A model generated the notes under the pieces. It had not been told where the DNA came from. It searched no databases and saw nothing but the letters and a program-made list of their open reading frames with translations. A stretch of DNA of 63,391 bases, filler included, from Candidatus Fermentibacterota bacterium (lineage in GTDB: Bacteria; JAFGKV01): the NCBI GenBank assembly GCA_016928395.1. It is 6 parts of 6 records of this genome, joined end to end, with 100 filler letters (N's around TTAATTAATTAA, not from the genome) between each part and the next. Parts side by side here need not be neighbours in the genome. Positions count along the whole stretch, not along the records: positions 1 to 18,534 come from JAFGKV010000212.1; positions 18,635 to 41,499 come from JAFGKV010000213.1; positions 41,600 to 52,570 come from JAFGKV010000215.1; positions 52,671 to 57,098 come from JAFGKV010000216.1; positions 57,199 to 59,914 come from JAFGKV010000218.1; positions 60,015 to 63,391 come from JAFGKV010000223.1. One strand, 5' to 3'. Below, one piece after another: positions 1 to 63,391 of this stretch. Both the position numbers and the translations under genes were made by a program. Position 1 is the first letter of the stretch; every line of letters starts with the position of its first letter.

Positions 1-108
1 GGGACACTGTGCCCGCCCGCTGCACTGTACTCTCAACCCTGAGAAATCTGAGGGAGCCCCGCGACCTCAGCGGCCGCACTGAACCCTGAACCCCGAACCC
101 TGAACCCT
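1..108. repeat. Composite intergenic repeat copy A: half REP-like hairpin, GTACTCTCAACC unit and four GAACCC(T/C) heptamers
   Basis: Near-identical to 18635-18722 and to the reverse complement of 63271-63391. Confidence 0.9.
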
Positions 109-111
109 TCC

Positions 112-1959
112 TCACGGCTTCCACCTCGATAGGGGATCCCACAGCCGGCCCGGCACCCTGAGCAGAAAACCCCAGCAATGGGTTGGCCCGCCCTGCCCCC
201 TCCACGCCTCCATCCATCCGGGGGGTGACTCGTAGAGGTAGGCAGCGCCATTATCTGTCACCGGCACGAACCCCTCCCAATCGTATTCATCACGGGTAAA
301 GAGGACATGGATCCCTTCCGGCGACTGCGACGGAACACTGTCAACGCGAGCGGCGTACAGCAACCAGGCATGTTTCCCGATGCCCCACTGGCCTTCGTCC
401 CGCCATGGGGGCACTATCAGTACCCGGTACAACAGATCGGCATTCTCAACGGCCTCTTGTTCGGTGGGAAACGAGACCATGGTCGCGCGGCCAAACTCGG
501 CGGCGCGGGTATCCGGCGGGCAATGCCTGGGAGGGAGAATGCCCGCCAGGCAGATGGCTATGAGACCCAGCCACCACCGGGGCAAAGGGATTCCCGAAGG
601 AACCAGAAAGAGGATCATGGCCGCCACGGGCGTCAGGTAATGAGGATGGCGTTTCGGCGAAAAGACGACTGCCACCAGATACGCCGCCAGGGCGAGATAG
701 ACGGCCCGTCTCTCCCCGTTGCGCCGGATATCGCGCAGGAATGCCGCGGCGAACACCAAAGGCGCGCCCGATGTCTGCACTAGCAATGTCCAGAGCTGTG
801 TCACGATCTGACGCCCACCAAGGCGTGAGGTGAATGTTCGCGTATGGTGGGCCAGGAAAGACGAAACGGTGAACTTGGTGGCCCCGGGAGGATTGGAGAG
901 GCGTTCCATAACGGTGCGGGCCAGGAGAATCCCGGCCAGCAGCCCCGCGGCGCGGAAGGCGAAGACCCGTGAATCCCTGCGGAGCATGCCCCCGCCCACC
1001 AGCAGCACGGCACACGGCATCCCCGCCGGCTGCCCTGTCACAGCAAAGGCTGCGGTCAGGGCAAACAGACCCAGCCTTCGCTGGAGCCACGCCCACACCA
1101 TGGTCAGGAGGCCCAGAGTGAAGAACAGGTCTGTGACCGTGGGTTCGGCGATGTCGGCGGCATAGGGCTCATAGGTGTAGTTGAGCCCCGAGGTCGCGAC
1201 TACCACCAGCGAAGCCGCCATCAGCGCACCGCGCATAAGGCCGCGGTGTCCCGCGCCGACCAGGGCCGCTAGGGCCGCGGCCAAGGGCAACACCGGCACT
1301 CGTGCCGCGGCCTCACTTTCGCCCAGCAGGGCGCTGGAAAGCTGCATGGGATAGGCAAAGCTCATGAATGCCGGGTAGAACCCCCATGTGCCGTTTTCCA
1401 GATCCCAGAAGGGCAGGAGCCGTGTGCGCAGGCTGGATGCAAAGCTGAACGCCTCGACTCCGTCGCCGTCGAAGCTCTGAACGGCAATCCGCGCCGGGCC
1501 GAAGACCGCCAGAACGCTTAAGCCGGCAAGGGCTGCAAGGACTTCACCTTTGGTGGGCCTCAGCCCCCGGAGATCGGCACGGCACACCCACAGCAACACC
1601 AGATCGGCGGTGGCCACCCCTGCCGCGGCAGGTATGGCCGACCGCGGGATCCCCAGGCAGTGAAGCACTGTATGCAGGAAGACCCAGATCACGGCGGACA
1701 GCGGCACCGCAAAGCCAAGCCGTACAAGCGAGGGCACTCTCAGAGCCGTGCTCAGGAGCCATCCGGGAAGTAGACCGTGGAGCATCAAGACCAACGCGAC
1801 AGCCCAGCGCAGCCCTGCCTGACCGGCGTCCACCGAGGGAAGCAGGCATACCCCCTCTCCCCAGGGGCAGGGTAGGGCAAGGGCTCGCGCCGCAGCCACC
1901 GCCGCGGCCAAGGTGCCGATCATGGCCGCAACGGAGTACGCGCGACCCGTCAACGCCAT
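112..1959 (-). CDS. Multi-pass membrane protein, putative GT-C (ArnT/PMT-like) glycosyltransferase
   Basis: Many hydrophobic segments with an acidic periplasmic loop (SFDGDGVE); last gene of a glycan operon; start moved to ATG 1959, overlapping the upstream stop. Confidence 0.6.
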   Translation of the reverse strand: MALTGRAYSVAAMIGTLAAAVAAARALALPCPWGEGVCLLPSVDAGQAGLRWAVALVLMLHGLLPGWLLSTALRVPSLVRLGFAVPLSAVIWVFLHTVLHCLGIPRSAIPAAAGVATADLVLLWVCRADLRGLRPTKGEVLAALAGLSVLAVFGPARIAVQSFDGDGVEAFSFASSLRTRLLPFWDLENGTWGFYPAFMSFAYPMQLSSALLGESEAAARVPVLPLAAALAALVGAGHRGLMRGALMAASLVVVATSGLNYTYEPYAADIAEPTVTDLFFTLGLLTMVWAWLQRRLGLFALTAAFAVTGQPAGMPCAVLLVGGGMLRRDSRVFAFRAAGLLAGILLARTVMERLSNPPGATKFTVSSFLAHHTRTFTSRLGGRQIVTQLWTLLVQTSGAPLVFAAAFLRDIRRNGERRAVYLALAAYLVAVVFSPKRHPHYLTPVAAMILFLVPSGIPLPRWWLGLIAICLAGILPPRHCPPDTRAAEFGRATMVSFPTEQEAVENADLLYRVLIVPPWRDEGQWGIGKHAWLLYAARVDSVPSQSPEGIHVLFTRDEYDWEGFVPVTDNGAAYLYESPPGWMEAWRGQGGPTHCWGFLLRVPGRLWDPLSRWKP

Positions 1960-2981
1960 GTAAGAAGACGGCAGTCCCGGCAGGTTGGGGACGACCGGTA
2001 GACCCGGCGAAACCGCCGGAAGCGCCGGGCATGCCAGATATCGTGGAGGGATTCGGTGAAGAGGTTCCCCATGATCAGCCTCGGAAGATGACAGCAGGGC
2101 GTCACATCGCCATCCATGGTGACATAGGCATAGCCCAGAAGCTGGGGGCATTCCAAACCGCGCCGGTGGAAAAACCGCGGCAAACCGAAGCGGTCAGCGA
2201 AGGTGCTCTGGATTCGGATACCCAGATCCCTGCCCTGACGATGCCACTGGCGGAACAGAGTGGCGCGACGGTCTTCCGGGATGGGCGCGATGGAAGAAAA
2301 ACGAGAGACCAGATTGATGATATTGACCCCGTCCATGCCGATCTGGGCCGCCTTGGCGATAATGCTGCCGATGGCCGGCGCGGACGAGGCGGACGCCACG
2401 ACGTTCCAAAGGATCTCCGGCGACGTCTGGCCCGCGCGGAAAGCCAGCAGTGCCTCCGTTCGTTCTATCACCGCCGACGCCGCCCGGTGAAGCGCGCCGG
2501 TGGAATCGCCGAACCCGTCATCGTCCACGGAGATGCGAATGTAGTCCAGCCCGGAGGAGAGAATCTTCTCGTTCACCTCATGGGAGAGAAGAACGCCATT
2601 GGTGGTGAAGGCAGCACGGAACCCTCGCCGTTTCACCTCGCGAACCATGGTGAAGGTGTCTTCATGGAGCAGCGGTTCGCCCAGGCCGAACAGCGTGATG
2701 AGGCTGGCCTGGGGCAGGGGGAGCCGCTCCATAATGCCCATGAACCTCTCCATGGGCATGTCTTCAGCCGGGAGTTTGTGGAGAACCCTGGGGCACATGG
2801 CGCAGGAGAAGTTGCAGCGATTCGTGGTCTCAATCTGGACCCAGGTGGGCATATCCGGTACGATGGCCAGGGTCTTGATCAGGGCCTGGAGCGCCGTCTC
2901 CGGTTGCGGCGGTGCGCCCAGACGCCGCAGCAGAGCCAGGGCATGCGTTGCCGCCGTCGTCCATACTCCTTGACGGATCAT
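1950..2981 (-). CDS. Radical SAM protein with SPASM/twitch domain
   Basis: CNFSCAMC (CxxxCxxC), GLGEPLLH, C-terminal CPQ...GDVTPCC...GN...CRDC; ATGA overlap with the flippase stop at 2978-2981. Confidence 0.88.
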   Translation of the reverse strand: MIRQGVWTTAATHALALLRRLGAPPQPETALQALIKTLAIVPDMPTWVQIETTNRCNFSCAMCPRVLHKLPAEDMPMERFMGIMERLPLPQASLITLFGLGEPLLHEDTFTMVREVKRRGFRAAFTTNGVLLSHEVNEKILSSGLDYIRISVDDDGFGDSTGALHRAASAVIERTEALLAFRAGQTSPEILWNVVASASSAPAIGSIIAKAAQIGMDGVNIINLVSRFSSIAPIPEDRRATLFRQWHRQGRDLGIRIQSTFADRFGLPRFFHRRGLECPQLLGYAYVTMDGDVTPCCHLPRLIMGNLFTESLHDIWHARRFRRFRRVYRSSPTCRDCRLLTWR

Positions 2982-4432
2982 CGCGAACCAAAACGCTCCC
3001 AGGCCGCCTGCCAGAGCTGGAGCACATGTGCCCTGTCCATCACGCATAGCCCGATGACATAGACGACCGCCATGAACACCAGATTCAAGGCGAGGCCGAA
3101 GGACAGTGGCGGAAACAACGGCCGGCACACAGCTCCCAGCAGTGCCGACGCCACCGCGGAGAGAATTGCAGGCCGGAGCAGCGACCAGAACCGTACGGGG
3201 TACTCTTTCTGGATCACGAGTACCGCCACGAGGATTGTCGAGCAGATAGTCAGGAACACCGCGGCCGCCATGCCCACGATCCCGGCCAGGCGCACGCCGG
3301 CGTATCCCAGCGACACGATGAGAACCGCATTGACCGCGGAGAGCATGGTGACGAGCCTGGTCCTTCCCCGGGAGATATAGAGATCAACCCAGTGGTTGAA
3401 CGTGCCGCGCACGGCCACCAAACCCATGAAGATCTTGAAGGGAACGGTGATGGGGATCCACTTGGGGCCGAAGAGGGCTATGACGATCTCATTGCCGCAG
3501 GCCAAGACCATGGCCACGGGCAGCAGCAGGAGATACGACGAGTAGCGGATGGCATACCCGTAGGCCCGGCACAGATGCTGTGTGTCGCGGATGGAGGAGA
3601 ACGCCGGATACACCATGGTGCTCATGGCGGTCTGAATCCTGAACCCGTAGTGCGGCAGGCGGAATGCCTTGCTGTAGAAACCTAACGTTGCGGTGCCAAG
3701 AGCCAGCTTCACGATGACGTCGTCGACGCTCCAGTAGAAGTAGGCCAAGGCCCCGCCTGCGGCCAGCGGAAGGCCGAACATGGCAATCTCCTTGATCACC
3801 GCCCCGTCGAATCGTGCGCGGGGACGGTAGGGCGCCATGATCCAGGCCAGCAGAGCCGATCCCATCTGGCCGGCCAGGGTACCGAGGATCAGGGCCCAAA
3901 GATGCAGACCCGCCAGTGCCAGCGCGATCTGAAACCCAATGGCTACCAGTACTTCCGAGAACGACACCAGGCTGGAGCGAAGGAAGTCCAGCCGCTTCTC
4001 CATGAGCACTTTGGGCAGCAGGAACGGCCCGACCAGAAGGCCCACCGCCGCCACCTGAAGCTCCCGTTCGAAAAACCATTCATGGGTCCCTCGCATGATG
4101 GGGCCAGCCAGAAGCACCGCGCCCGCGAAGGCGAGGCTCGAAAGGGTGAGTTCTAGAGCGAAGGCATTGTCGGCGATGCGGTGCACATTGCCTGAACGCT
4201 GAATCAGTATCCTGGCGGGCTGCAGCGAGGTGAACAGCTTGAACGTACCGATGATGACCAGGATGTACGCGGCTGCGCCGAAATCCTCCGGGCTCATGAT
4301 CCGCATCAGGACTACTTGCGCGGCAAGCTGGATCACCGCCGAGACTACGGTGCTGAGCGTGATTATCTGCGCGCCGCGAACCGAGCGGAGGAAGAGACTG
4401 GGCGGATCTTGCCGAGCCTTCGCCGGTATCAC
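2978..4432 (-). CDS. Wzx/WzxC-like polysaccharide flippase
   Basis: LMRIMSPEDFG, LGFYSKAFRL, LFGPKW motifs; many TM segments. Confidence 0.88.
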   Translation of the reverse strand: MIPAKARQDPPSLFLRSVRGAQIITLSTVVSAVIQLAAQVVLMRIMSPEDFGAAAYILVIIGTFKLFTSLQPARILIQRSGNVHRIADNAFALELTLSSLAFAGAVLLAGPIMRGTHEWFFERELQVAAVGLLVGPFLLPKVLMEKRLDFLRSSLVSFSEVLVAIGFQIALALAGLHLWALILGTLAGQMGSALLAWIMAPYRPRARFDGAVIKEIAMFGLPLAAGGALAYFYWSVDDVIVKLALGTATLGFYSKAFRLPHYGFRIQTAMSTMVYPAFSSIRDTQHLCRAYGYAIRYSSYLLLLPVAMVLACGNEIVIALFGPKWIPITVPFKIFMGLVAVRGTFNHWVDLYISRGRTRLVTMLSAVNAVLIVSLGYAGVRLAGIVGMAAAVFLTICSTILVAVLVIQKEYPVRFWSLLRPAILSAVASALLGAVCRPLFPPLSFGLALNLVFMAVVYVIGLCVMDRAHVLQLWQAAWERFGSR

Positions 4433-5952
4433 GCCTTCCTCCGGAACAGCAACAGGTAGTACCCCGAGATATGGGGCCGCCTGCTGACATATGCATCGGC
4501 GCTGAAGAGAAAACGGTACCGTTGGAGAAAGCGCTCGTCCTCAAATACGGCACGATCGATGGGGAAGCTGCTCCCAAATGCCTCCTTCGGATAGTCTGCA
4601 GCGCTGACCAGCACGAAAAACTCCGGATCAATGTCGAACAGATAGTCCGGCGAATAGCTCTTCTTCAGCCAACCTCCTGGTGCGGCCGCCACATGGGGGT
4701 CGGTGAGGCCCGTGATATCCACCACCCGTATGTTCGAGGAGTACCCGATGATGCCGATATCCATGAGGGCCACGGTGTCTTCCGGCTGTGCATTATCGCG
4801 CAACCAGGCGCCGATACGCTGGTGGGCATGGTGGTATCCGTCGGCCCACATGTCGGTGTGGAGCCGGAGATAGTGGGTCTGGTTGGCAATGTCGAAGACG
4901 ATAACGCCCATGAATCCCCAGATCACCGCCGAGGGCACAAACCCAAAACGCCCCGACCGGGGCAACAGCGAGCGGATCGAGAGCACGCCATCTTGCAGGG
5001 CCACCATCAGAAGGGGCATGATGGGAATGAGGAAACGGTAATGAGGTATCCAGTCTCCCCCTGCGGCGGCGACATAGGCGCAGAAGGCCAGCACGATCGC
5101 CAGCCCATGACTGCGGGCGCGATCCAGGGGCCAGTGGAGAAAGGGCAATGCGGCGATCAGATAGAGGGCCGGCTTGCCGTATTCGTTGACGAAGTTCTTC
5201 AGGTACTCCACTCCTCGAACGAGTTGCGGCAACCCTCCGCCGGTCTTGGCGCCGAGAGTATTGGGGACGAAGGAGCCGTAGTAGAAGAATCGCCACACCA
5301 GGTGAGGACAGGTCATCAGTAGTGCCAACGCCAAGGGTGCCAAGGACGCCCGGCGTCGTTGCCCCAGGTAGTAGTGGGCAAGTGTGACCAGGAGCAGGAG
5401 AGCCCCATCGGGACGCACCAAGGTTGAGACCGACACTGCGGCCACTGCCCCCATCAAGCGCCGGGACCGGTTCTCGGCGGTGGCATAGAGGAACACGCCC
5501 AAGGTGACAAGCACCGCGAACATCTGCGTCTCAAGACCATTCACCGCCGTGATGGCCACCGCGCCCGCTGATGCCCAGAAAATGCAGCCCAACGCGGCCA
5601 TGGGCACCCTTCCGTGGCCCCATGCGCGCCCCAAAGCCGCGATAAGCACCATGGTGCCTACGGCCGCGGCGATTCCAAGAACCTTGGAGAGCACTTCCGG
5701 GTCAAGCCCCCCGCGCAAACCCAAGGCATGCACAATGGTCCACAGGAAGTTAGTGTACCCTTCCACCCGCTCGCCGGGATTGAACACGAGGCCATGACCA
5801 TCCACCCAGTTGCGGGCATAGCGATAGCTGATGAACGCGTCGTCCACCGTGTAGCGGACCAGGAGAAGACAGTGGACGATGAGCCCGATACCCGCCATGA
5901 AGATGAGCAGGCGGTTGGTTAGGCGATCTCTCAAGACAGCCTCCGGCCACAT
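4429..5952 (-). CDS. GT-C membrane glycosyltransferase (AftB-like)
   Basis: DDAFISYRYARN..GHGLVFNPGERVEGYTNFLW, GLET, RPDG, GGDW..YRF motifs; start taken at ATG 5952. Confidence 0.78.
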   Translation of the reverse strand: MWPEAVLRDRLTNRLLIFMAGIGLIVHCLLLVRYTVDDAFISYRYARNWVDGHGLVFNPGERVEGYTNFLWTIVHALGLRGGLDPEVLSKVLGIAAAVGTMVLIAALGRAWGHGRVPMAALGCIFWASAGAVAITAVNGLETQMFAVLVTLGVFLYATAENRSRRLMGAVAAVSVSTLVRPDGALLLLVTLAHYYLGQRRRASLAPLALALLMTCPHLVWRFFYYGSFVPNTLGAKTGGGLPQLVRGVEYLKNFVNEYGKPALYLIAALPFLHWPLDRARSHGLAIVLAFCAYVAAAGGDWIPHYRFLIPIMPLLMVALQDGVLSIRSLLPRSGRFGFVPSAVIWGFMGVIVFDIANQTHYLRLHTDMWADGYHHAHQRIGAWLRDNAQPEDTVALMDIGIIGYSSNIRVVDITGLTDPHVAAAPGGWLKKSYSPDYLFDIDPEFFVLVSAADYPKEAFGSSFPIDRAVFEDERFLQRYRFLFSADAYVSRRPHISGYYLLLFRRKA

Positions 5953-7397
5953 GTAGCCAAGTGCCAGGAACCCAACCCCAGCAATACCACGGGTATGGCC
6001 AGTATGATGGGGCTCAAGCCGCCGGCCCACAAGGCAAACCACAGGATGTCCACATGACGATGCCGCCAGGTCACGGGAGGTTCCAAATCGCCGCCGCGCT
6101 CCAGCCCATCATCCACCGTACGCTTCAGGTAGGGCCCCACGAGCCGGGCATGCCAGATCACCGGGCTCAGGGCGGGCTCTCGTTGCACGTGGGCAACCCA
6201 CTCCCAGCCGCCGAAGCCTCTGGTTGTCTTGATCTCTTCGATAGCATCGTGGAAGTTCACCAGCACGCCCAGCAGCGCCACGACGACTCCCGCCGCTCCC
6301 AGCACCCCTGCCAGCCGCCAAGCCCGCCCGGAGAGAAACCCCAGCGCGGGCCACCACAGGATCATGGAGCTGAACATGTACCGGGGACCCCAGCACCATG
6401 TGGATGACCGGTCCAGGGCCACGTAAAGCGCCAGCATGGAAAAGCCGGCCGCATAGCCGATACCCAGCACCCGGTCTCGGGGTGGACAAAGGGCGCGGAC
6501 AAAGGCCACCGCCGCTACCGGGACAAACACGAAGAGCCCCTGCCCTGGAGACACGAGCAGCATCGCGGCGCGCGACGCCCAACGAAGAGGATTCAAGGCA
6601 GCGGCCTCCACCACGTCTGTCGCGCTCTGGGCCATGACCAGGCCTCCATACCCCATGTCGAAGGGCGAACCGAAACGCCACAGATTGTATGCACCCAACA
6701 CCACCACGACCGCAGCCCAGGGCGCAACGACTCCGACCCAACGCGCACCGCCCCGGGGAGGGGCAACCAGGAGCAGGCCGCCGCTCATCACCGCAGCAGG
6801 CGCCACGGTCTCATACTTCACAAGAAGCGCTCCCGCCAGGGCAGCCGAAAACACTGCATAGTCTCGGACTCTCCGATCGCCGCCCTGGAGGCGATAGAGC
6901 GTGAGGATTGCCGCCACCAAGAGGGCGGCCTGAAGCGGTTCGGCCCAGAAGTGTTTGGCATACGGAAAGGCCAGGGAGCCAAAGGCTGCCAGGAGAACCA
7001 GATGTAGCCGCCGTCGGGGCGCGATACCGGCACAACCCATGACTCGGTACAAGAGGATCATGAGCCACGCCACAACCGCTTGGTTGAGTAGCGAGCAGGC
7101 CGTCCGCTCTACGTGCTCCTGGTGGCTGGGCACAAGCCGCCCCGCGGCGTGTCCCGCCGCGAGAAGCGGGAGCACCGCCATGGATAAGCCCGGGGGGAAG
7201 TGACTCACTATCCTGCCGCCGGATCCCGTCACGCCATAGACGTAGGGCTTGTCGGGAAGCTCGGGCGAGAGGTGAAGCAGGAAGGACCGGGCAGCGTGGA
7301 ATCGGCTCCAGTCGTCTGCTGTGTAGAGATGACCACCGGCCATGGCGAGGTAGACCGCCAACAGCCCTACGAAAAGCCTCACGATGCCGGTACTCAT
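5931..7397 (-). CDS. GT-C-like membrane glycosyltransferase (GT39/PMT-like)
   Basis: N-terminal TADD, YAKHFWAEP, YNLWRFGSPF and WGPRY motifs; multi-TM. Confidence 0.7.
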   Translation of the reverse strand: MSTGIVRLFVGLLAVYLAMAGGHLYTADDWSRFHAARSFLLHLSPELPDKPYVYGVTGSGGRIVSHFPPGLSMAVLPLLAAGHAAGRLVPSHQEHVERTACSLLNQAVVAWLMILLYRVMGCAGIAPRRRLHLVLLAAFGSLAFPYAKHFWAEPLQAALLVAAILTLYRLQGGDRRVRDYAVFSAALAGALLVKYETVAPAAVMSGGLLLVAPPRGGARWVGVVAPWAAVVVVLGAYNLWRFGSPFDMGYGGLVMAQSATDVVEAAALNPLRWASRAAMLLVSPGQGLFVFVPVAAVAFVRALCPPRDRVLGIGYAAGFSMLALYVALDRSSTWCWGPRYMFSSMILWWPALGFLSGRAWRLAGVLGAAGVVVALLGVLVNFHDAIEEIKTTRGFGGWEWVAHVQREPALSPVIWHARLVGPYLKRTVDDGLERGGDLEPPVTWRHRHVDILWFALWAGGLSPIILAIPVVLLGLGSWHLATCGRRLS

Positions 7398-7606
7398 GCA
7401 CGTGTCTCATACTGCGGACGGAGTGAGCCGCGCCGTGCCGCAACCGTTCCCCGCATCCGCCGGGGCGTGAAACGGCGGGATACCGATGCGACGCTCGGCA
7501 AAATGAAACATGACATACGACAGTCCCGTCTCACGGTAGGGGTTGGCTTTTCCCGCTGCATGAGTGATGAGTGATCCTGCCGCAGCAGCCTCACTCCATC
7601 GCGCAA

Positions 7607-8274
7607 TTAGCTGGGGCTGGGGACGCCCGGCTCGCGCTTCTTCGACTCACGCTCAAGCAGCATAGCTCTGATCCTCGACACGACCAAGTCGATGGCCACA
7701 CGGTTATGAGCCCCCTTGGGGATGATCACATCCGCGTAGCGCTTTGACGGTTCAACAAAATCCAGATGCATGGGTTTCACGGTGCCCAGATACTGGTCTA
7801 TCACGGAACCGATGCTCCTGCCGCGATCATCGATATCCCGCCTCAGGCGGCGGATGAAGCGTTCGTCGCCGTCAGCGTCGATGAACAGCTTGATATCCAT
7901 GAGATCTCGGAGCGCCTTGCACTCCAGAACAAGAATCCCCTCCACCAAGAGCAGCGCAGAGGGCGCCAACCTTACTCCGGACGGGCGGCGGGAGTGAGTC
8001 GTGTAGTCATAGTCCGGCCGCTCCACTCGTTCCCCTGCGCGCAGTCCTTTCAAATGGTTGATGAGCAGTTCGGTGTCGAACGCCTTGGGATGGTCGTAGT
8101 TGATGCTCCTTCGTTCGTCTTCCGAGAGACCGCTGTAGTCATGGTAGTAGGAATCATGGCTCAAGATGACCGCAGTACCCTCGGGGAAGCATCGGGCGAT
8201 GATCCGAGCCACCGTGGTCTTGCCCGAGCCGGTACCTCCGGCCAGGCCGATGATGATGGGATCAGGCGCGGCCA

Positions 8275-47176: not shown

Positions 47177-47177
47177 G

Positions 47178-55188: not shown

Positions 55189-55345
55189 ATAGCCCCGCGG
55201 GCGGGACGGCAAGCCGATTCGAGTGGTGAAGGGATGTTCGCGGAGCTGTCGACAATTGTGTCGGAGCCGTCTCCACGCTATCGTTCAGCCCGCAGAGGCT
55301 CTTGCGGCACCCGCGAGCCTGCGCATCCCAGCGGGGGAGCATACA

Positions 55346-56284
55346 ATGAGTCGCACAGCCTATTACTGGGACCCGATCAGCCTTGAGCACGACACAGGTG
55401 CGCACGCGGAGCACATGCTCCGCGCCGATCGCCTCAGGCCCGAGAAGATCGCCCACGCGATCGACGGAGTGGCCTTCCGGCCGGTCGAACCTCACGACAC
55501 CGCCGAGTGGATCTGCCGCATTCACGATCGACAATACCACGATTGGGTGAAGGAGGTTTGCCGCAGCGGCGGGGGGCTCCTGGACGGCGGCGACACACCC
55601 GCCAGTGCCCGCAGCTACGATGCCGCGCTCGCCTCGGTCGATGCGGTCTTGACCGCCGCGGACGCGATCATGGCGGGCGAGCTGGACACCGCCTTCTCCG
55701 CCATGAGGCCGCCGGGCCACCACGCCCTGCCGCCCCGGGCGATGGGATTCTGCATCTTCAGCAACGTGGGGATTCTCGTTCGCTACCTTGAAGAGAAATA
55801 CCGTATCGGCCGCCTGGCTGTCGTCGATTTCGACGTCCACCACGGCAACGGCACGCAACACGTCTTCTGGCGCGACCCGGACGTGCTTTACGTCTCGCTC
55901 CATCAGTTTCCGCTCTTCCCGGGCACGGGCGCCGCGCGCGACGAGGGCGACGGGCCCGGTCTGGGCACAACCTTGAACATCCCCTTCTCGCCGGGAACCA
56001 CGGAGGGAGAATACCTGGCGAAGTTCGAGGCCAAGGTCTTGCCCGCCGTGGACGCCTTCGGCCCGGAGTTCCTGATCATCTCCGCCGGGTTCGATGGCCA
56101 CGTCGCGGACCCGCTGGCCGACTTGAGGCTCACGGAGGACGGCTATGCCTGGATGACCCGCGAGTTGAAGTCGCTCGCCACCGAGTGGTGCCAGGGCCGC
56201 ATCATCAGCGTCCTCGAAGGCGGCTACAACCTGGACGCGCTCGTGCGCTGCGTCGCAGCGCATGTCCAGGCGCTGAGGGGATAG
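55346..56284 (+). CDS. Histone deacetylase-family (AcuC/AphA-like) Zn amidohydrolase
   Basis: RPPGHHA, MGFCIFSN, DFDVHHGNGTQ, FPGTG, SAGFD, LEGGY. Confidence 0.95.
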   Translation: MSRTAYYWDPISLEHDTGAHAEHMLRADRLRPEKIAHAIDGVAFRPVEPHDTAEWICRIHDRQYHDWVKEVCRSGGGLLDGGDTPASARSYDAALASVDAVLTAADAIMAGELDTAFSAMRPPGHHALPPRAMGFCIFSNVGILVRYLEEKYRIGRLAVVDFDVHHGNGTQHVFWRDPDVLYVSLHQFPLFPGTGAARDEGDGPGLGTTLNIPFSPGTTEGEYLAKFEAKVLPAVDAFGPEFLIISAGFDGHVADPLADLRLTEDGYAWMTRELKSLATEWCQGRIISVLEGGYNLDALVRCVAAHVQALRG

Positions 56285-56491
56285 GCAAACCTGAGATCAT
56301 GTGTCTGTCTGACGTGCCCGCCGGCGTCGCGCCGGCAAGGGCGTTGGAATCTCTCGACTCAGATCGCCGGTGCCGAGGTGGCGGGAGGGGATGTACTTGT
56401 CTTCTCGCTGGTCGCCTGCGCCTTCCTCAACAGTGCCTCAAGTCTCTTCTTGAGTTGCGAGAGGATCCTTTCAATGTCAGGATCAAGCTTG

Positions 56492-56590
56492 CAGCCCGTG
56501 GTAAAAGGGAAATCAGCGGTTCGGAAACGCCGATCCTGACCGTGGAAACCACCGGCTTTGGCGCCGGTTCCACAGTTTCTCCACGGGCTG
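56492..56590 (-). mobile_element. ~99-bp MITE, second copy (inverted)
   Basis: TIRs CAGCCCGTGG / CCACGGGCTG; flanks CTTG and CTAG. Confidence 0.72.
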
Positions 56591-56690
56591 CTAGTATAGA
56601 GAACCGATCGTTCCGCATGCACGCGATGGCTATCCAGGACGTTGTCCGCTTCAAGGCGTTAACAGTAGGATCACAACCGAGAGTAGTCTA

Positions 56691-57098
56691 ATGCTCCACC
56701 AAGCTCTCTTGCTGAAATGCCCTGCTTGTGAATACTCGCTCATCGGTCTCCCATGCGAACACCGATGCCCTGAGTGCGGTTTTGAATACGACGTCTACAC
56801 CCGTCTCTGGCAATCCTCCCCAAGGTGGCGGGCTGGCAGGATTGCTGTGTCATTGTGCTCTCCTATGCTGTATGCCTTGTGGTGGTTTGTGTCAATCCAG
56901 AATACGCCGTGGTGGATTCAACATGCTTACCTTGCGAGTGGGCTAGCGCTGTGTGTACTGTCTCTGCGCCGGATTCTCGGTGTTCACCGCGAGTTTGTTG
57001 CGGTCACCCCCAACCCGGATTATTCATACTTCCTGAGTCGAGCCACGCGGGGCGGTCCTCCGGAGGGTAGTGGCCCATTGCTGTTGGCCGAGCGCACA
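56691..57098 (+). CDS. Hypothetical membrane protein with N-terminal zinc ribbon (runs into the contig end)
   Basis: CPACEYSLIGLP..RCPECG followed by two hydrophobic segments; lower GC. Confidence 0.55.
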
Positions 57099-57198: not shown

Positions 57199-57539
57199 AG
57201 AAGTCCGGCTGCGGGCGCCAGTTCAGCGCCGGCTCTGCCCGACAACGCCTCGAAGCCGACGAGCAGCAGGGCGTATCCGCATGCAGGCCTCCAGGACAGG
57301 TCCGCAAGGCAATCGTACAGCGCATCCCAGTTCCTGCCGAAGTAGGAGGGGAAGTGAAGAGCGGCCGCGAATGCCGCAAGGAGGTCCGCTCCAGTATTCG
57401 CCGCGCCCAGGTCGATTCGGATGAAATCCAGCCCGTTGCGCTCGGAGATAAGCCGGACCACATCCTCTTCGAAGGCGGCTGCGACGGGGTAGATACCGGA
57501 ACTTAGATATGAACTGAGCGCTACTGTCCAGTCGTGCAT
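57199..57539 (-). CDS. Barstar-family ribonuclease inhibitor (3' truncated)
   Basis: LHFPSYFGRNWDALYDCLADLSW signature; immediately downstream of an RNase. Confidence 0.9.
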
Positions 57540-57542
57540 GCT

Positions 57543-57992
57543 TCACTCCACAATCCGCTTGAAGCTACTGTAGTGATCATCCGTGTAGTAGCGCTCGCCG
57601 CTTGCGCCCGCGACGATGCGCCGCGCACCCCGGTCGGAGGCTCCCGGGGTGAGGACGGTGTACTCCAGATAGTAGCCATCATCCTGCACGGGCAGGAGCC
57701 CCTCGTAGTTGTGAAAGACCGCCCCGTCTCTTGAGTATGGGAAGGGACCACCACTCTCTATCAATTCCAGCGTGGCCCTCGCCTCAGGCGGCAGTTCGTC
57801 GACTCCGATAACGACAGCGTCAGGTTTGACGACGGTCACCCCGGAGTCAGCAGGAGCATTGTCATCGGAGGCGGGAGGGAGCCACTCAAAGCTCGGGAGA
57901 AGTCCGCCACAGCCAGCCAGGGGCAACAACAGGCACGCGACCGCCAGGATGGCGAGTGACGCCCCCATGCGCTTCAAGACACTGGTCCTCAT
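57543..57992 (-). CDS. Guanyl-specific ribonuclease (RNase Sa/barnase family), lipoprotein
   Basis: Lipobox LAGC; LPPEA..GGPFPYSRDG.VF.N.EG.LP...GYY.EYTV.TPG..RG.RRIV...YYT.DHY. Confidence 0.92.
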   Translation of the reverse strand: MRTSVLKRMGASLAILAVACLLLPLAGCGGLLPSFEWLPPASDDNAPADSGVTVVKPDAVVIGVDELPPEARATLELIESGGPFPYSRDGAVFHNYEGLLPVQDDGYYLEYTVLTPGASDRGARRIVAGASGERYYTDDHYSSFKRIVE

Positions 57993-58313
57993 TTGTTCAC
58001 ACCGCTTCCCGTTCGCGCTGCAACGCAATGATGCCCACTAACCACGCGCCGCCGCATGGCGCACAAGGCCCAACGAGAGCAGTGGAGCGCGGCATACTAC
58101 TTACAAGGCGGTGAGCGATACCCGTTTTCCCGCAGTGCGCACTGCCCGAATGGCCGCTTGCAGGAGAGGCGTCCCGCTACGTCCCACTCCAGTCTCATTT
58201 CGGACTGGAATCCGAACTTCCCTTGTGAGAGGTTGCACCATTCACACGGTGGAAGAACGGTGCAGCGCACATCGGGCCTTGAGATGCCGCCAGTTTCGGC
58301 CGGCCCGCCGTGA

Positions 58314-58529
58314 TTACTTGAGTTCGTCTTTCGATACCCTCAGAACGACCTCATCGCCAAACTGATCGATCTTGTCCAGACCAACCACAACCTTCTTGAA
58401 GAGCCCCATCTTGACCACGATATAGCCGACCGTCCACGTCGAAGTGTCGATATCGATGTCGGCCACCTTCCCAACCACCATTGCATCCCGGTCCAGCACT
58501 TTCTTTCCCATTATCTCACTGGCATTCAT
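58314..58529 (-). CDS. PRC-barrel domain protein
   Basis: ASEIMGKKVLD....VGKVADIDID....V..IVV, GDEVVL; GGAGG RBS. Confidence 0.85.
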   Translation of the reverse strand: MNASEIMGKKVLDRDAMVVGKVADIDIDTSTWTVGYIVVKMGLFKKVVVGLDKIDQFGDEVVLRVSKDELK

Positions 58530-58931
58530 TCTTCCTCCACAGACCCCGGCAACCTGATGCCCCTATCGGCTAAGTCTCATCGAAGCCTCGGTGATGACCA
58601 TACAATACTCCTCTCCAGTCAACAAGACACTGGCTGCTCGGTTGGTCACCGCGAGGACTCGCGGAAAGACTTCGCCGGCCAAGCGCTCGGTCATGGGCCC
58701 TTCAAGACCCTCGGCGGACTGCCGGCATGGGCGCTGTCCGCGGAGGACATGGGCCCGCTTGAACATTTCACATGTCGGGTCCAGAATCAGGGCAGAGAAG
58801 CCCACCGACAAGGAGATAGGCCGATGCGGGCAGGATTGAGGCAGTTGTTATTCGGTTCATGGGAGCCTGTGTGCGAAGCCGCACCCTCCTGCGAAATCCC
58901 GGAGACTGCCAGCGAGTGTGAGACCCTGTAC

Positions 58932-59914
58932 ATGGCCGCAAGCCAAGGACGGCCAAGCCGCAGGGTCGACGCAGGACGCAGACGCAGACCTCAGACGGCA
59001 CGCTCGGGCGGACGTCCACGAGCCCAGGCACCCCAGCGCAGGCGAGAGTCCGCCGGCAGCGGCGAAACAGTAAGTACCCTCGGTTCCGGCGGGTCTGGAG
59101 GAATCACGAGCGGGTCCGGTCCTGGTGGCGGCAGCGGGCTGCCGTTCAACATAGGCAAGGGTGGCCGTTCAGGCTGTCTGACAGCAATCGTGGTCATCAT
59201 CATAGTAGTGGTCGCCGCCATCTGGCTCTTCGGCGGAGGGCTCGACACGGGAGGCGGTTCTCCTCTGCCAACCGAGAGCCCTACGACCGCCTACGGTTCC
59301 GGTCAGTTGTCAGGTGTGACCCCGGCCGCCGACTTCGCGACCAACTATCCCGCGGTAACAGGCGCGACCCAGGGCACGAGCGGCCAGACCTGGCTGGTCA
59401 TGCTCTACCAGGACGCCGATGACAAAGTACTCGAGAAGGACATCTACCTCGACCTGAACGAGGCCGAGAAGGCGGGATCATCCGACAGGGTGACAGTTGT
59501 GGCGCAGATAGACCGCTACAACGGAGGGTATACTGGCGACGGCAACTGGACGGGCGCCAAGCGCTTCGTCGTCGTCGCTGACGACGACCTTTCACGGGTG
59601 TCTTCTCAGGTGGCCGAAGACCTCGGCGAGGTCAACATGGCATCAGCACAGACGCTCCATGACTTCGTCATCTGGGCGATGGCGAACTTTCCCGCCGACA
59701 AGTACGCCCTGATTCTCTCCGACCATGGTATGGGTTGGCCGGGAGGCTGGACCGACCCGACGCCGAAGTCTGCCACGGATACCAGCAGTCCTCTGTCTGC
59801 CCGCCTGGGCAACCTTCTCTTCCTCAACGAGATGGGGGAAGCCTTGAGTGCCATACGGTCCACAACCGGGCTGGACAAGTTTGAACTCATCGGGCTGGAC
59901 GCGTGCCTGATGGG
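58932..59914 (+). CDS. Membrane-anchored clostripain-family (C11) cysteine peptidase (3' truncated)
   Basis: Arg/Gly-rich N-terminus, TM, WLVMLYQDADD..LE, GEVNM, SDHG.GW, LDACLM. Confidence 0.88.
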
Positions 59915-60014
59915 NNNNNNNNNNNNNNNNNNNNNNNNNNNNNNNNNNNNNNNNNNNNTTAATTAATTAANNNNNNNNNNNNNNNNNNNNNNNNNNNNNN
60001 NNNNNNNNNNNNNN
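59915..60014. other. Artificial contig spacer
   Basis: N run with TTAATTAATTAA. Confidence 0.99.
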
Positions 60015-60360
60015 CACAGAGGCTCGCCTGAACCCCGAACCCTGAACCCTGAACCCTAACCTGTAGCTCCACGCCACGGCACCGGAAGTTGCACCACGTA
60101 TCGTCCGGGCGAGCCCGGGGCCCCCACTCGTTTGAGAGTACATCCACGCACTGGTACTCGGAGGTACGCCTCTGGATACCGATACCGATACCGACTCCGA
60201 GCCCCGCCCTCCCGCGGGCGACCAGGGACGGTCGCCCCTACCACGGCAACGGTTTCTCGTAGCGCTGGGCGGGCCTGAGAGCTCACAGCCGATAGCCACC
60301 AGCCGGCCGTACTCTCCACCTCGAAAGACCTGGGTGCGGCCGCCTCCAGAGGCCTTACTG
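60015..60360 (-). repeat. Composite intergenic repeat copy I: reverse complement of copy F plus GGGTTC(A/G) x4
   Basis: Colinear with 45647-45929; REP at 60216-60241. Confidence 0.9.
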
Positions 60361-60389
60361 ACAATTGATGACTTCCCGCGACGCGAGCC

Positions 60390-61280
60390 CTATCCCGGTG
60401 ACGATCTCCGGCTCGTGACCTGGAGCGCGATCCCTGTGAGGATCAGGGTAAGCCCCGCGAGTGTGGAAGGTGCAATCGGTTCGGCCAAGACAAAGCGTAC
60501 GAGCACCAATGACAGACACGGCGAAAGAAAGACCAGATTGCTGATGCGCGCAGTGCGATCGATGAGGCTGAGCGCTTTGAGCCACAGGGCAAAGGTGACG
60601 CCCATCTCAAACAACCCCACATAGAACGCTCCTGCCAGGCCCTTCCAGGGAAGCGCACGAAACCCGCATCCGGTGATGTGCGCGATGATCAAATAGCACA
60701 GACCGAAGAGGAAGCTCTGCAGGAGTTTCGTTGCGCCATCCCGTCGGTCTCGCACATTGAGGATCCAGTACAGAGCCCAGATCACCGACGACCCTGCCGC
60801 CAGCATAATGCCCACGGGATCTTGGAATCGAAGGCTGGCCAGATCACCCCTGGTCCCGATCACAATGACGCCGACGAAACTCAAGGCCAGGGCTCCCAGG
60901 CTCCGTGGTCCCAGCCGCTGCCCCAAGAACGGCACGGCGAGTAAGGCCAGCACGATGGGCCACAGGTAGTTGAGCACCAACGCTTCTTGGGCGGGAAGCC
61001 GGCGATAGGCAGCGAAAAGCACGCGGTAGTAGGCGAAGGGATTCAGAAATCCCGCGACCGCCGAACAGAGGAGCATCCGCGGAGTCCATGCAGAAGCGCC
61101 GCGCAGCTTCCCCGTGGCAGCAGCATGCACCAGAAGAAAGGCCACGGCGGTGGCTACTGCGCAGAGCTGCAGCTCGGCGGGGTCCAGAAAGCGAAGGGCA
61201 AGTTTGAACGCTGAGGCCGCAGTGGACCACAGCAGCACGGCGGCCAGACCGTAGGCATACGCTCTGAGGTGACCTGGCAC
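60390..61280 (-). CDS. DMT/EamA family transporter
   Basis: AVLLWSTAASAFK, NPFAYY..LF.AY..LPAQEA..LNYLWP, GLFEMG; about 10 TM. Confidence 0.9.
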   Translation of the reverse strand: MPGHLRAYAYGLAAVLLWSTAASAFKLALRFLDPAELQLCAVATAVAFLLVHAAATGKLRGASAWTPRMLLCSAVAGFLNPFAYYRVLFAAYRRLPAQEALVLNYLWPIVLALLAVPFLGQRLGPRSLGALALSFVGVIVIGTRGDLASLRFQDPVGIMLAAGSSVIWALYWILNVRDRRDGATKLLQSFLFGLCYLIIAHITGCGFRALPWKGLAGAFYVGLFEMGVTFALWLKALSLIDRTARISNLVFLSPCLSLVLVRFVLAEPIAPSTLAGLTLILTGIALQVTSRRSSPG

Positions 61281-61425
61281 GTACGACTCCTATCTTGTCG
61301 GGAACTATCTGGAGATCTCTGGTCTCAGGCCTGTGCAATATGGGGCGTCCTGGGCGGGCGTCGAGGGGCGTGGCATGCACGCCGGTTGCGCGGCGAGAGC
61401 TCGAAACACGGCGCGGAGGTGAGCC

Positions 61426-62628
61426 ATCACTCGCTACACGGTTGCAGTTGTCGGCGGAGGAATCGTTGGTGCGGCAACGGCCATGAGCCTGCTGGATCCG
61501 CCCGGTTCCACGGTGATCCTGCTGGAGGCCGAGGATCGGCTGGCGGCCCATCAAACCGGCAACAACAGCGGAGTGATTCACTCCGGTCTCTACTACAGGC
61601 CCGGCTCGCTCAAGGCCGCCAATTGTGTGAAGGGCCGTGAGCGGCTCTACCGGTTCTGCAGGGAGTACGGGGTGCCCCATGAGCGATGCGGCAAGATTGT
61701 GGTGGCGACTCGCCAGGATGAGCTCTTGCGCCTGGACGAGCTGTTCCGTCGGGGCACGGCCAACGGATTGACCGGCATCAGGCGCATCGGCCCTGACGAG
61801 ATCCCCGCCTATGAACCTCACGCAGCCGGGATCGCGGCGCTCGTGGTGCCAGATACCGGTATCGTCGATTACGCTGCGGTGACCGAGGCCATGGCGGCCC
61901 GCATCCGGGGCGCCGGCGGCGAGATCAGGCTCTCATCACGGGTCATCGGGTGCCGCCGCGAGGGAACCGAGCTGGTACTGGAGACCGGCAGCGGCATTAT
62001 CCGGTGCATGAATCTCATCAACTGTGCCGGATTGCAGTCCGACCGACTGTCCCGCATCTGCGGCGTAGAACCGGGCGTGGCCATCATCCCGTTCCGGGGT
62101 GAGTACTACACCCTGCTCCCCCACCGCGCACATCTGGTTGGGAACCTCATCTATCCGGTGCCTGACCCACGGTTCCCCTTCTTGGGGGTACACTTCACCC
62201 GCATGATTGGCGGTGGGGTCGAAGCCGGGCCCAATGCGGTCCTTGCCTTGAAGCGCGAGGGATATCGCCGGACTGACGTCTCTCTGCGCGACTGCCTGGG
62301 CTTCGTGCGCTTCCCGGGATTCTGGCGCATGGGCTTGCGGCACTGGCGGATGGGGCTGGGAGAGGGATATCGCTCGCTGTCAAAGAGAGCATTCGTGCAG
62401 GCGCTTCGGCGATTGGTCCCGGATCTGACGGCGGCCGATGTGGCACCCGGTGGTGCCGGTGTCCGCGCCCAGGCGCTGGCCCCTGACGGCGCCCTGCTGG
62501 ATGACTTCAAGATCGTGCAGGCGCCAAGAATGATTCATGTGCTGAACGCGCCGTCGCCGGCGGCCACGGCAGCCTTGGCCATTGGCGACTCCCTCGCCCG
62601 TATTGCCAGGGAGCAGTTTGACGTATGA
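61426..62628 (+). CDS. lhgO: L-2-hydroxyglutarate oxidase, apparent non-canonical ATC start
   Basis: VAVVGGGIVG lies upstream of the first ATG; HQTGNNSGVIHSG.YY, PFRGEYY, PFLGVH, GVRAQA, NAPSPAAT. Confidence 0.9.
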   Translation: MTRYTVAVVGGGIVGAATAMSLLDPPGSTVILLEAEDRLAAHQTGNNSGVIHSGLYYRPGSLKAANCVKGRERLYRFCREYGVPHERCGKIVVATRQDELLRLDELFRRGTANGLTGIRRIGPDEIPAYEPHAAGIAALVVPDTGIVDYAAVTEAMAARIRGAGGEIRLSSRVIGCRREGTELVLETGSGIIRCMNLINCAGLQSDRLSRICGVEPGVAIIPFRGEYYTLLPHRAHLVGNLIYPVPDPRFPFLGVHFTRMIGGGVEAGPNAVLALKREGYRRTDVSLRDCLGFVRFPGFWRMGLRHWRMGLGEGYRSLSKRAFVQALRRLVPDLTAADVAPGGAGVRAQALAPDGALLDDFKIVQAPRMIHVLNAPSPAATAALAIGDSLARIAREQFDV

Positions 62629-62671
62629 GAAATCAGAGAACAAAGATGCCCCCTCAGCGCATGGAGACGAC

Positions 62672-63088
62672 ATGACCCCCGGCGTCGTCACCCCGGCCAA
62701 GCGGGAAGAACTGGCGGCGCGGATGGAGCGCCTTGGCATGCGAGAAGAAGACATAGAGGAATCCTTCGTTCGCGGTTCCGGGCCAGGCGGACAGAAGATC
62801 AACAAGACCTCGGTGTGCGTGGTGCTGACCCATCGCCCCAGCGGCCTCATGGTGCGATGCCAGGAGACGCGATCCCGAGAGTTGAATCGCTTTCTCGCGC
62901 GCCGTCGGCTTGCCGACAAGCTAGCGGAAACCATCGAAGGCGAACAGAGCCAGAGGAAGCAGCAGGCAGAGAAGATCAGGCGCCAGAAACGTCGCCGCTC
63001 GCGGCGCGCCAAGGAAAAGATGCTCAGCGACAAGCACGAGCAGGCGCGCAAGAAGGAGGCCCGGGGAGCCGTCGCGCCGGAGGAGTAG
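62672..63088 (+). CDS. Peptide chain release factor-like protein (RF-1 domain, ArfB-like)
   Basis: FVRGSGPGGQKINKTS, CQETRSRELN, basic C-terminal tail; GGAG RBS. Confidence 0.88.
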   Translation: MTPGVVTPAKREELAARMERLGMREEDIEESFVRGSGPGGQKINKTSVCVVLTHRPSGLMVRCQETRSRELNRFLARRRLADKLAETIEGEQSQRKQQAEKIRRQKRRRSRRAKEKMLSDKHEQARKKEARGAVAPEE

Positions 63089-63204
63089 GACCGGCGCCCG
63101 AGACCTTGGTGAGATGTCAACATGGGCTGGATCCACAGGCGCAGGTTCCGAAGGTGCCGAACGAGAATTGGCGCATGTGGAGTGGGCACGTAGCCGCTGC
63201 GCGG

Positions 63205-63391
63205 CAGCTCTCAGCTATCAGCTTTCAGCCAGCCGACCGCCGCCCCATCTCCGCTTCGCTCGCAGGTGCCAGGGTTCAGGGTTCAGTGCGGCCTCTGAGG
63301 ACGCCGGGCTCCCTCAGAATTCTCAGGGTTGAGAGTACGCTACACAGTGGCAAATCGGTCGCCCTTCGCTGCACGGGCGGGCACAGAGTCC
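63205..63391 (+). repeat. Composite intergenic repeat copy J: GCT(A/C/T)TCA heptamers, CTTCG, GGGTTCA x2, GGTTGAGAGTAC unit, half REP
   Basis: Reverse complement of copies A and D. Confidence 0.9.

Follow-up and report, generated by a model that had tools for sequence, protein, structure and literature searches.

Repetitive extragenic palindromes (REPs) of the GTAG superfamily are sequences of 20-40 bp with an unpaired GTAG tag at one end, and the survey that describes them places most of them downstream of genes (PMC3733652). Regularly spaced REPs of alternating orientation, together with conserved linker motifs, make up bacterial interspersed mosaic elements (BIMEs; PMC2817692). Di Nocera et al. 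(PMC3733652) describe REP dimers lodged within larger palindromes of Anabaena variabilis (GTAG-15) and Halothiobacillus neapolitanus (CGTC-1), where host palindromes free of a REP were not found, and mosaic intergenic regions of Neisseria in which members of different repeat families are interleaved. Here we describe a family of modular intergenic repeats in a window of 63,391 bases (the whole stretch of DNA analysed, made up of six contigs separated by N44-TTAATTAATTAA-N44 spacers) from the metagenome-assembled genome (MAG) of an uncultured sediment bacterium. The core of the family is a unit of two hairpins with a tail of 7-nt repeats, and its loci are probably lineage-restricted, non-coding, non-autonomous selfish repeats whose mosaic structure arose by nesting and microsatellite slippage. 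Their closest known kinds are REPs, REPINs (inverted REP doublets) and BIMEs, REP dimers inside larger palindromes, and the heptamer tracts and small dispersed repeats of cyanobacteria; we regard them as a known kind of selfish DNA and not as a new mechanism. The original prediction for this window held that no described element nests all of these parts, which was too strong, because REP dimers in larger palindromes and mosaic intergenic regions are already in the published accounts (PMC3733652, PMC2817692). Although Proteobacteria, Neisseria and cyanobacteria are known to have mosaic intergenic repeats, none had been described in this little-known candidate phylum; judged by title and abstract, none of the papers listed by a literature search on Eisenbacteria deals with genomic repeats. 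What is added here is the bare unit, a fixed nesting site, the structural conservation of the second hairpin and a link to heptamer tracts.

The basic unit opens with CTTGTT and a first hairpin (hairpin 1) whose 8-10-bp stem is formed by the arms TTGAGAGTAC and GTACTCTCAA; a second hairpin (hairpin 2) follows, with a GC-rich stem and the fixed foot CTGA...TCAG, after which AGGCCGCACTG leads into the 7-nt-repeat tail. Two related genomes are central to its interpretation. G001, a Candidatus Eisenbacteria MAG, is the nearest public genome reached, its EttA gene being 79% identical at the DNA level to that of the window. G002, which is lower in GC and does not match the EttA region of the window at the DNA level, holds the unit in its simplest form. 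This bare unit of ~82 nt is found in G002 and once in the window (47854-47933); in G002 it consists of the GAGAGTAC/GTACTCTC hairpin and hairpin 2, followed by AGGCCGCACTG running into (AACCCTG)n. The left part of the G002 layout reads (CTGAACC)n, CTT, GTTTGAGAGTAC, a loop of 14-27 nt and GTACTCTC with AACC or TGCC, and the right part reads TTGAAAAATCTGA, stem, loop, stem and TCAG, followed by AGGCCGCACTG and (AACCCTG)n.

As far as the cited accounts describe them, the REP, REPIN and BIME elements of E. coli, Pseudomonas and Stenotrophomonas share with this family their short, GC-rich, intergenic GTAG palindromes, the inverted doublet (seen here in G001), a modular and species-specific composition and the presence of Y1 transposase genes in related genomes (PMC2817692, PMC3116915). 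The family differs from them in that REPs form only one of its parts and are lodged in another palindromic unit, whose arms, hairpin 2 and heptamer tail bear no GTAG tag. REPs in the window are single, one per composite, without the regular alternation of a BIME, and no REP-associated tyrosine transposase (RAYT) gene flanked by cognate mosaic REPs was found in the window or among the seven Y1_Tnp loci of the related genomes. The REP dimers in larger palindromes are similar in that the dimer occupies a constant position within a longer palindrome which is repeated too, at least as these are presented in PMC3733652; here, however, the bare host unit exists (26 matches in G002 and one in the window) and carries hairpin 2 and a heptamer tail in addition. 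The unit is also like the IS200/IS605-derived palindrome-associated transposable elements (PATEs), and miniature inverted-repeat transposable elements (MITEs) in general, in its small size, lack of coding sequence and multiple copies; it has a hairpin close to either end, no visible target duplication and wobble pairs on one strand. The last two traits are expected of single-strand transposition. Heptamer flanks were seen as well, but the Y1 genes are unlinked, no TnpB (PF07282) was found in G001 or G002, which may be incomplete, no TnpA lies beside any copy, no autonomous parent was found, and the left hairpin is a perfect 10-bp inverted repeat enclosing cargo. Nor does the unit match a MITE of the DDE type, as the 10-bp inverted repeat brackets hairpin 1 only, leaving hairpin 2 and the tail outside, and neither a flank duplication (17 copies) nor a parent copy was found. 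Finally, the cyanobacterial short tandemly repeated repetitive (STRR) sequences treated by Elhai and co-workers in 2008 are reportedly dispersed, intergenic, tandem 7-nt repeats of several types, accompanied by tiny hairpin repeats inside other repeats, and the small dispersed repeats of the same work are said to measure ~21-27 nt. The name STRR was defined for heterocystous cyanobacteria. Dispersed intergenic tandem heptamers of several sequence families occur here too, a likeness of pattern only, in another phylum, with other sequences, at a GC content of ~62% and with a hairpin unit of 82 nt.

Copies, nesting and spacer occupancy in three genomes

The original prediction listed ten loci (A to J) built from one parts list, and self-BLAST, tandem-repeat detection (TRF) and motif counts find the described parts at all ten. 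An eleventh locus, absent from that list, spans 47832-47933 on the minus strand and consists of the complete two-hairpin unit (47854-47933) and GCTGTCG heptamers (47832-47858). In the self-BLAST, the type-A unit has three copies of 94-97% identity (27-93, 18655-18721 and the reverse complement of 63272-63338), and the type-B unit is shared, together with a composite of ~240-280 nt, by loci F, H and I: 45646-45722 (F) matches the reverse complement of 60285-60361 (I) at 92% identity, 45760-45928 (F) the reverse complement of 60127-60296 (I) at 91%, and 45647-45753 (F) matches 52382-52487 (H) at 91%. Loci G and B are partial relatives of this composite, with 77% DNA identity to each other. The motif GTACTCTCMACC, allowing one mismatch, occurs eight times in the window against 0.29 expected, a count that none of 100 shuffles attains. 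An alignment of I, F, H, G and B shows one module order with swaps at fixed junctions. F and I have every module in common at 91-92% identity, F being longer by 49 nt of heptamers, while H carries a different REP and B other heptamers and another hairpin. The junction swap that had been proposed is real: behind GTACTCTCAACC six loci (A, D, J, F, H and I) have the hairpin unit, whereas G has CCCGAAC heptamers directly, without hairpin 2. Five of the 12 contig ends (1, 18635, 52570, 60015 and 63391) fall within repeat elements, as had been noted, and read depth of the source run in the bin 1-618 is 307.8 against ~12-15 nearby, a value that fits a multi-copy repeat but is not itself a copy number. 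In practical terms, the repeats break the genome assemblies of this lineage and yield spurious open reading frame (ORF) calls.

Other parts of that list were sustained in part. Five perfect GTAG-tagged palindromes, with 7-9-bp stems and 4-5-nt loops, begin at 45815 (F), 48271 and 48401 (G), 52523 (H) and 60216 (I); they qualify as REP palindromes of the GTAG superfamily and comprise three copies of one REP, one variant and one other, the REP of the window reading GTAGGGGCGACC.. The proposed REP hairpins are present, but as a class GTAG-tagged hairpins show no enrichment over other tags: of the 300 GTAG sites in the window 10 have a hairpin, and the rates for nine control tags are 1.3-3%. TRF finds three kinds of period-7 tract (GGGTTCA, GCTATCG/GCTGTCA and CAGCAGT), the three heptamer families occupying at least 12 places in the window, as well as period-6 and period-8 tracts. 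Of the periods originally named, 6, 7 and 8 stand where they had been placed, whereas the supposed period-9 tract CTCTGTGCC is two copies of the period-8 CCTCTGTG, and the supposed period-5 CTTCG amounts to ~2 copies with no TRF call.

Beyond the window, the family is confined to few genomes. Among species-representative genomes a 19-mer of unit A matched a single contig, which belongs to G001. Exact GTACTCTCMACC occurs eight times in G001 and not at all in controls, and among 40 relatives only G001 and G002, with eight copies each, are enriched in it. A covariance model built from 11 near-identical aligned G002 copies of 82-96 nt was run with stricter filters on 100 related genomes and matched 26 places in G002, two in G001 and, marginally, one in G052, with no match in the remaining 97. 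Applied to the window with filters off, it finds seven places at E<0.01, namely six right modules (the right arm of hairpin 1 with hairpin 2 and what follows) and the unit at 47854-47933, which scores 37 bits (E 1.2e-8) although the model derives from G002 copies alone. A 19-mer of the unit's end matched six metagenome contigs, three of them real copies (L056, L059 and L061) and three by chance. A second inverted-repeat element, ..ATTCTTCGGTCGCTTCGCTCCCTCAGAATGACA..(~35 nt)..TGTCATTCTGAGCGA..GGAGCGAAGAATCTC.., adjoins many of the G002 units (L047, L048, L052, L070, L073, L078, L083 and L090), and the linker GCTTCGCTTCGC..AGGCGAC of loci E and J in the window may be a relic of its end.

The unit takes up other repeats at one fixed position, the loop of hairpin 1. 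In G001 a GTAG-REP doublet lies 31-70 nt upstream of the right module in 11 of 11 copies, and the left arm is retained 100-117 nt upstream in nine of the 11, a spacing which indicates that the doublet lies within the hairpin 1 loop and that the composite was amplified as a whole. This doublet has the inverted form of a REPIN, CTGTAG-CCCCGGCGC..GCGCCGGG and CACGCCGC..GCGGCGTGG-CTACAG, and it also stands by itself at many places in G001, where a 261-nt query gives 42 BLAST matches at E<=1 and 25 at E<1e-3, most of them on the doublet. In the window, where each element has a single REP, the loop contains a period-6 tract, one GTAG REP and GCTATCG-type heptamers, and in two other copies (L086 and L059) it is filled by yet other short tandem tracts. 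Overall, the inserts range from 14 to ~170 nt and are unrelated in sequence. The proposal that nested non-autonomous units underlie the mosaics thus agrees with a unit that is bare in G002, holds a REP doublet in G001 and a tract, a REP and heptamers in the window, and whose orthologous spacers in G001 lack an element or hold different modules.

The structure of hairpin 2 is conserved. We aligned 29 right modules (six from the window, 10 from G001, 11 from G002 and two from metagenome contigs), counting the 28 distinct rows. Across nine stem pairs 87% of the cells pair, a share that drops to 28-54% once the 3' partners are shifted along, and four of the nine pairs show double-sided changes (29 cells); none of 500 shuffles equals either the cells or the covariation score. 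The changes divide subfamilies, with CTGAGGG/CCCTCAG, CTGGGTGC/GCACCCAG and CTGATGGCGC/GCGCCATCAG as alternative stems. Wobble is confined almost wholly to one strand, with 10 G-T cells against one A-C cell in the outer seven pairs, although these cells are not independent of one another.

The unit is closely linked to heptamer tracts. Its right flank consists of AACNCTG heptamers in 17 of 17 G002 units and its left flank is heptamer-like in 11 of the 17, none of which shows a direct (target) duplication. The tract that follows type A is mostly AACCCYG, and in G001 three of four type-B copies lead into NNNACTG units. Dispersed (GAACCCY)n, searched for as the pattern (GAACCCY)2.7, gives 94 matches in G002, four in G001 and none in controls; five of 100 genomes have any match and 95 have none. 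Three genomes beyond G001 and G002 (G078, G062 and G054) match, one with a single long array and one with a single match; G054, with GCGATCGC motifs, and G078, with mixed STRR-like heptamer runs, are therefore not taken for Eisenbacteria. One array of G078, a 46%-GC genome, has (GGGTTCA)12 followed directly by three other heptamer runs and is STRR-like without a hairpin unit (L126, contig C1). A contig from another sediment sample differs from 15115-15357 of the window by three substitutions and by a 14-nt insertion, exactly two heptamers, behind 15123, so that heptamer copy number varies between populations.

Orthologous spacers, a check that the original prediction had itself suggested, are empty or differently filled when the window is compared with G001. 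The gene order GGDEF-EttA-methyltransferase is retained there. In the window the spacer upstream of EttA is 388 nt long and includes locus B; its G001 counterpart is 120 nt long and has no element. Downstream of EttA the window shows only heptamers and other modules, at a place where G001 carries a full unit in reverse orientation. Contig C116 of G001 is syntenic with 46275-52243. After NadA, the window has a spacer of 557 nt that holds locus G, the minimal unit and heptamers, whereas that of G001 is far shorter: the flanking matches are 63 nt apart, with ~140 nt from the NadA stop to the GCTGTCG tract. The GCTGTCG heptamers at 47832-47858 are common to both spacers and the minimal unit is not; G001 also has no repeat after Rrf2. 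A composite of 174 nt (unit A, heptamers, linker and heptamers) in locus J has a match of 79% identity on a G001 contig that is not syntenic, and with its unrelated flanks this match is counted here as apparent mobility of the composite as a block.

Proposed mobility and competing explanations

These observations suggest that the units moved to their sites and were not made in place. As the unit has two subterminal hairpins and no target duplication, and its wobble pairs are limited to a single strand, the enzyme responsible would act in trans on single-stranded hairpins and may be of the HUH or Y1 type. GTAG-tagged REP palindromes of the RAYT type above all, together with short tandem tracts, would have lodged in the loop of hairpin 1, and the resulting composite would then have been amplified as a block, a different one in each species. 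The 6-, 7- and 8-nt tracts would lengthen and shorten through slippage, and copies would decay and probably recombine at shared modules, which could account for the swaps at fixed junctions. If nearby transcripts are affected at all, this would be incidental.

The window was said to hold no cognate enzyme, which agrees with a tblastn search using five Y1 proteins (best E 0.011). Y1_Tnp genes number three in G001 and four in G002. One of these (L066, on contig C200 of G002) encodes a classic RAYT-like Y1 transposase of 187 aa with its own GTAG REPs on both sides (GTAGGTCGGGTTAGCG..CCCGAC), which differ from the REPs of the mosaics. Three others (L063, L064 and L065) encode proteins of 325-352 aa in which an N-terminal Y1_Tnp domain precedes a long C-terminal extension, and L064 is bracketed by its own inverted repeats of ~19 nt.

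Several observations weigh against mobile, selfish elements. No REP doublet, arm of hairpin 1 or hairpin-2 tail lies within ~1.5 kb of the seven Y1_Tnp loci, the MAGs being incomplete, and no copy was found with an ORF between its arms. The neighbours of the unit are ordinary genes (ABC ATPases, DUF362, methyltransferases and ECF sigma factors), those that recur belonging to common families only. Presence or absence of a whole unit was not seen to vary within one species; as heptamer number is all that changes at that level, mobility rests on a comparison of two species whose spacers align poorly. The compensatory changes in hairpin 2 separate subfamilies and therefore stand for few independent events, and a functional RNA would fit them too. 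The hairpin 1 arms show no compensatory changes in decayed copies, which fits a terminal repeat without being proof of one. Lastly, the opposite strand of hairpin 2 in G002 is followed by TTTTT, and this is the best terminator-like site of its locus (L093).

The last of these points belongs to another explanation, in which selection keeps the units, by whatever means they spread, as transcript elements acting in cis (terminators, 3'-end stabilisers or G-quadruplex-forming tails) because of their effect on the upstream gene. Five of six window units face the 3' end of a convergent gene, and for these, as for the tracts of C, E and G, the sense strand reads stop, (GGGTTCA)n and hairpin 2; the 10-bp GC-rich hairpin before the TTTTT of G002 lies on the sense-type strand, locus I folds better on that strand (z -2.6 vs -1.3), four of seven GGGTTCA-type tracts have at least four G3 runs and, judged by sequence alone, could form a quadruplex, and the survey cited above places REPs mostly downstream of genes (PMC3733652). 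We nevertheless consider this explanation unlikely. After better gene calls, themselves still crude, 18 of 31 units over three genomes face a gene 3' end and 13 do not (six and eight in G002), so that the rule of orientation was rejected and the originally proposed targeting of gene 3' ends does not hold generally. The shape of an intrinsic terminator appears on the bottom strand in G002 and not in the window copies, none of which passes a terminator scan, and the terminator reading was dropped for the window. In addition, the wobble pairs of hairpin 2 favour the other strand (10 vs 1), and the orthologous genes of G001 do without the element. Quite improbable, in our judgement, is a multi-copy family of small structured RNA genes, for example regulatory or guide-like RNAs. 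Such genes would account for the conservation of both hairpins and the compensatory changes of hairpin 2, for the one-strand wobble bias and for the predicted fold of the minimal unit, two hairpins at -28 to -30 kcal/mol that beat shuffles on the two strands (z -2.4 and -3.9). The succession of a long-stem hairpin, UUGAAAAA and a GC hairpin could also be likened to single-guide RNA layouts. A possible likeness of GTTTGAGAGTAC..GTACTCTCAA to a CRISPR repeat/anti-repeat duplex, which has no partner gene, was dropped. But Rfam gave no match over the window at gathering scores and, at E<=1, two matches in 45500-48500, both at the level of chance, with none in a G002 unit locus; G001 and G002, both possibly incomplete, lack IscB (NF040563) as well as TnpB matches; no promoter-like site stands out; copies decay freely, the arms of hairpin 1 uncompensated; and the loop accepts unrelated inserts of widely varying length. 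The window contains no tRNA or tmRNA by scan, and contigs of one metatranscriptome run of the source study, compared with the first contig, match it exactly only at 5635-5799 and 15609-15863, outside loci A, B and C, and are uninformative.

It had also been suggested that a single system writes or extends periodic DNA; this would be a reverse transcriptase, a telomerase-like activity or a primase-polymerase for which the hairpin unit serves as template or primer. The constancy of heptamers after the G002 units, the tendency of tract type to track unit type, the many periods within one genome and the co-occurrence of dispersed tracts with units would all agree with such a system, but it appears very improbable: RVT_1 is absent from all five genomes searched (G001, G002, G078, G003 and G004, possibly incomplete, the first three of which carry tracts), pattern matches in G002 far outnumber units (94 vs 26), tracts occur without the unit in the unrelated genomes G078, G062 and G054, and the sole tract difference observed is an exact gain of two heptamers, as slippage gives. 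Hardly credible is a small Asp-rich peptide of 49-57 aa (..VDxDYDxDNDSDT.PEH..) encoded by loci B and G with the period-6 tract as coding sequence. Both loci start with ATG just past the left-arm-like motif and stay open through that tract, but F and I lack a start codon and have their common REP in another frame, B and G combine their 77% DNA identity with many amino-acid changes, other lineages hold unrelated inserts at this position, and the candidate was rejected because frames are not conserved between element copies and a codon model calls no gene at either locus. The same model calls none of the ORFs of 100-126 aa that run through repeats at 47821-48135 (minus), 45662-46042 (plus) and 59967-60364 (minus), which have no family match where tested and are likely spurious, created by the repeats. 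In a rather doubtful variant, the unit would belong, as its non-autonomous form, to a system of single-strand transposition (HUH-type or other) not yet described; it would land in register in 7-nt microsatellites and both seed and extend them through its 3'-terminal heptamer. On this view the STRR kind of heptamer tract in bacteria, whose origin is to our knowledge unexplained, would be a by-product of such elements, and REPINs and other small repeats would hitch-hike in the shelter of the hairpin 1 loop. The three related genomes show three stages (bare unit; unit with REP doublet; unit with REP and microsatellites) and offer a natural series for how BIME-type composite repeats assemble, one that may also bear on the growth of heptamer tracts from hairpin elements.

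Loci and other features of the window

The six contigs occupy 1-18534, 18635-41499, 41600-52570, 52671-57098, 57199-59914 and 60015-63391; GC content ranges over ~0.56-0.65, and the genes are ordinary housekeeping ones (among them GlmS, a GGDEF protein, EttA, an rRNA methyltransferase, a PBP4-like protein, NadA, an Rrf2 regulator and a DMT transporter). Locus A has a type-A right module on the plus strand at 27-81 (GTACTCTCAACC, hairpin 2 and AGCGGCCGCACTG), the contig starting 26 nt upstream within the element, and on the same strand a tail of 4.3 CTGAACC heptamers (79-108) that abuts the stop of a minus-strand gene at 112-2151. Locus B, on the plus strand, opens its composite with the left-arm-like CTGTGAGACAAC (14901-14912) and continues with a period-6/18 tract (CGACAA/CGATAG; 14957-14997), heptamers of period 7/14 (GGCAGTA/GTCAGCA; 15015-15051) and, at 15091-15165, a hairpin with a 9-bp stem, GGACTGCGT..ACGCAGTCC, followed by decayed CCTGAAY heptamers. 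At locus C (16898-16967, plus), downstream of EttA, a period-4/8 tract GAATGGAT and three GGGTTCA heptamers stand without a hairpin unit. Locus D (18655-18722, plus) is a type-A right module (18655-18709) with heptamers (18707-18722), within an element cut by the contig start at 18635. Locus E (30221-30419, plus) has the linker GCTTCGCTTCGC..AGGCGAC twice, 5.6 copies of GGGTTCR and three period-8 tracts (TCTTCACC, CCTCTGTG and GAATGCTG).

Among the type-B composites, locus F has its right module on the minus strand at 45647-45698, about ten GCTATCG/GCTGTCA heptamers at 45711-45781, without assigned strand and 49 nt longer than those of locus I, the GTAG-tagged REP palindrome GTAGGGCGACCGTCTCTGGTCGCC on the plus strand at 45815-45838 and, at 45861-45925 on the minus strand, a period-6 tract (45861-45875) and the left arm (reverse complement GTTTGAGAGTATAC; 45912-45925). 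The composite of locus G (48156-48373, plus) comprises the left-arm-like GTGTGAGAGAAC, a period-6 tract, a REP (48271-48296, minus), heptamers at 48327-48358 and the right arm GTACTCTCAACC (48362-48373). CCCGAAC heptamers come straight after this arm, then a second GTAG palindrome (48401-48423, minus) that overlaps the NadA stop; this stretch (48370-48423) has no assigned strand, and the two palindromes differ in sequence and lie on the same strand. Locus H has its type-B right module on the minus strand at 52382-52433, followed at 52441-52570 (no assigned strand) by GCTATCG heptamers (52441-52487) and the variant GTAG REP (52523-52548, minus), the contig ending within the element. Locus I, whose contig starts with five CCTGAAC heptamers (60027-60061, plus), holds the full composite on the plus strand at 60130-60360: the left arm GTTTGAGAGTAC (60130-60141), period-6 GATACC (60175-60200), the GTAG REP (60216-60241, minus), three heptamers (~60271-60300) and the type-B right module (60309-60360). 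Locus J consists of CAGCTAT heptamers, the linker CCGCTTCGCTCGCAGGTGC and CAGGGTT heptamers (63205-63286, no assigned strand), and, on the minus strand at 63284-63391, a type-A right module (63284-63338) with its upstream part running into the contig end.

Some other features were also noted. A different repeat of ~100 nt (84% identity, inverted) lies at 55088-55188 and 56492-56593, flanking a gene of the histone-deacetylase family (55223-56284), and shows no visible relation to the mosaic family. The top terminator-like site of a 20-kb scan lies at 53666-53700, where a GC-rich hairpin with a perfect stem of 16 bp (12 G-C pairs, loop of 3) has a T-rich tail. A 76-nt direct repeat (79%) at 41600-41675 and 44402-44477 falls within a gene for a beta-helix/NosD-like protein of 1215 aa, which is cut by the contig start, and is probably an internal protein repeat.

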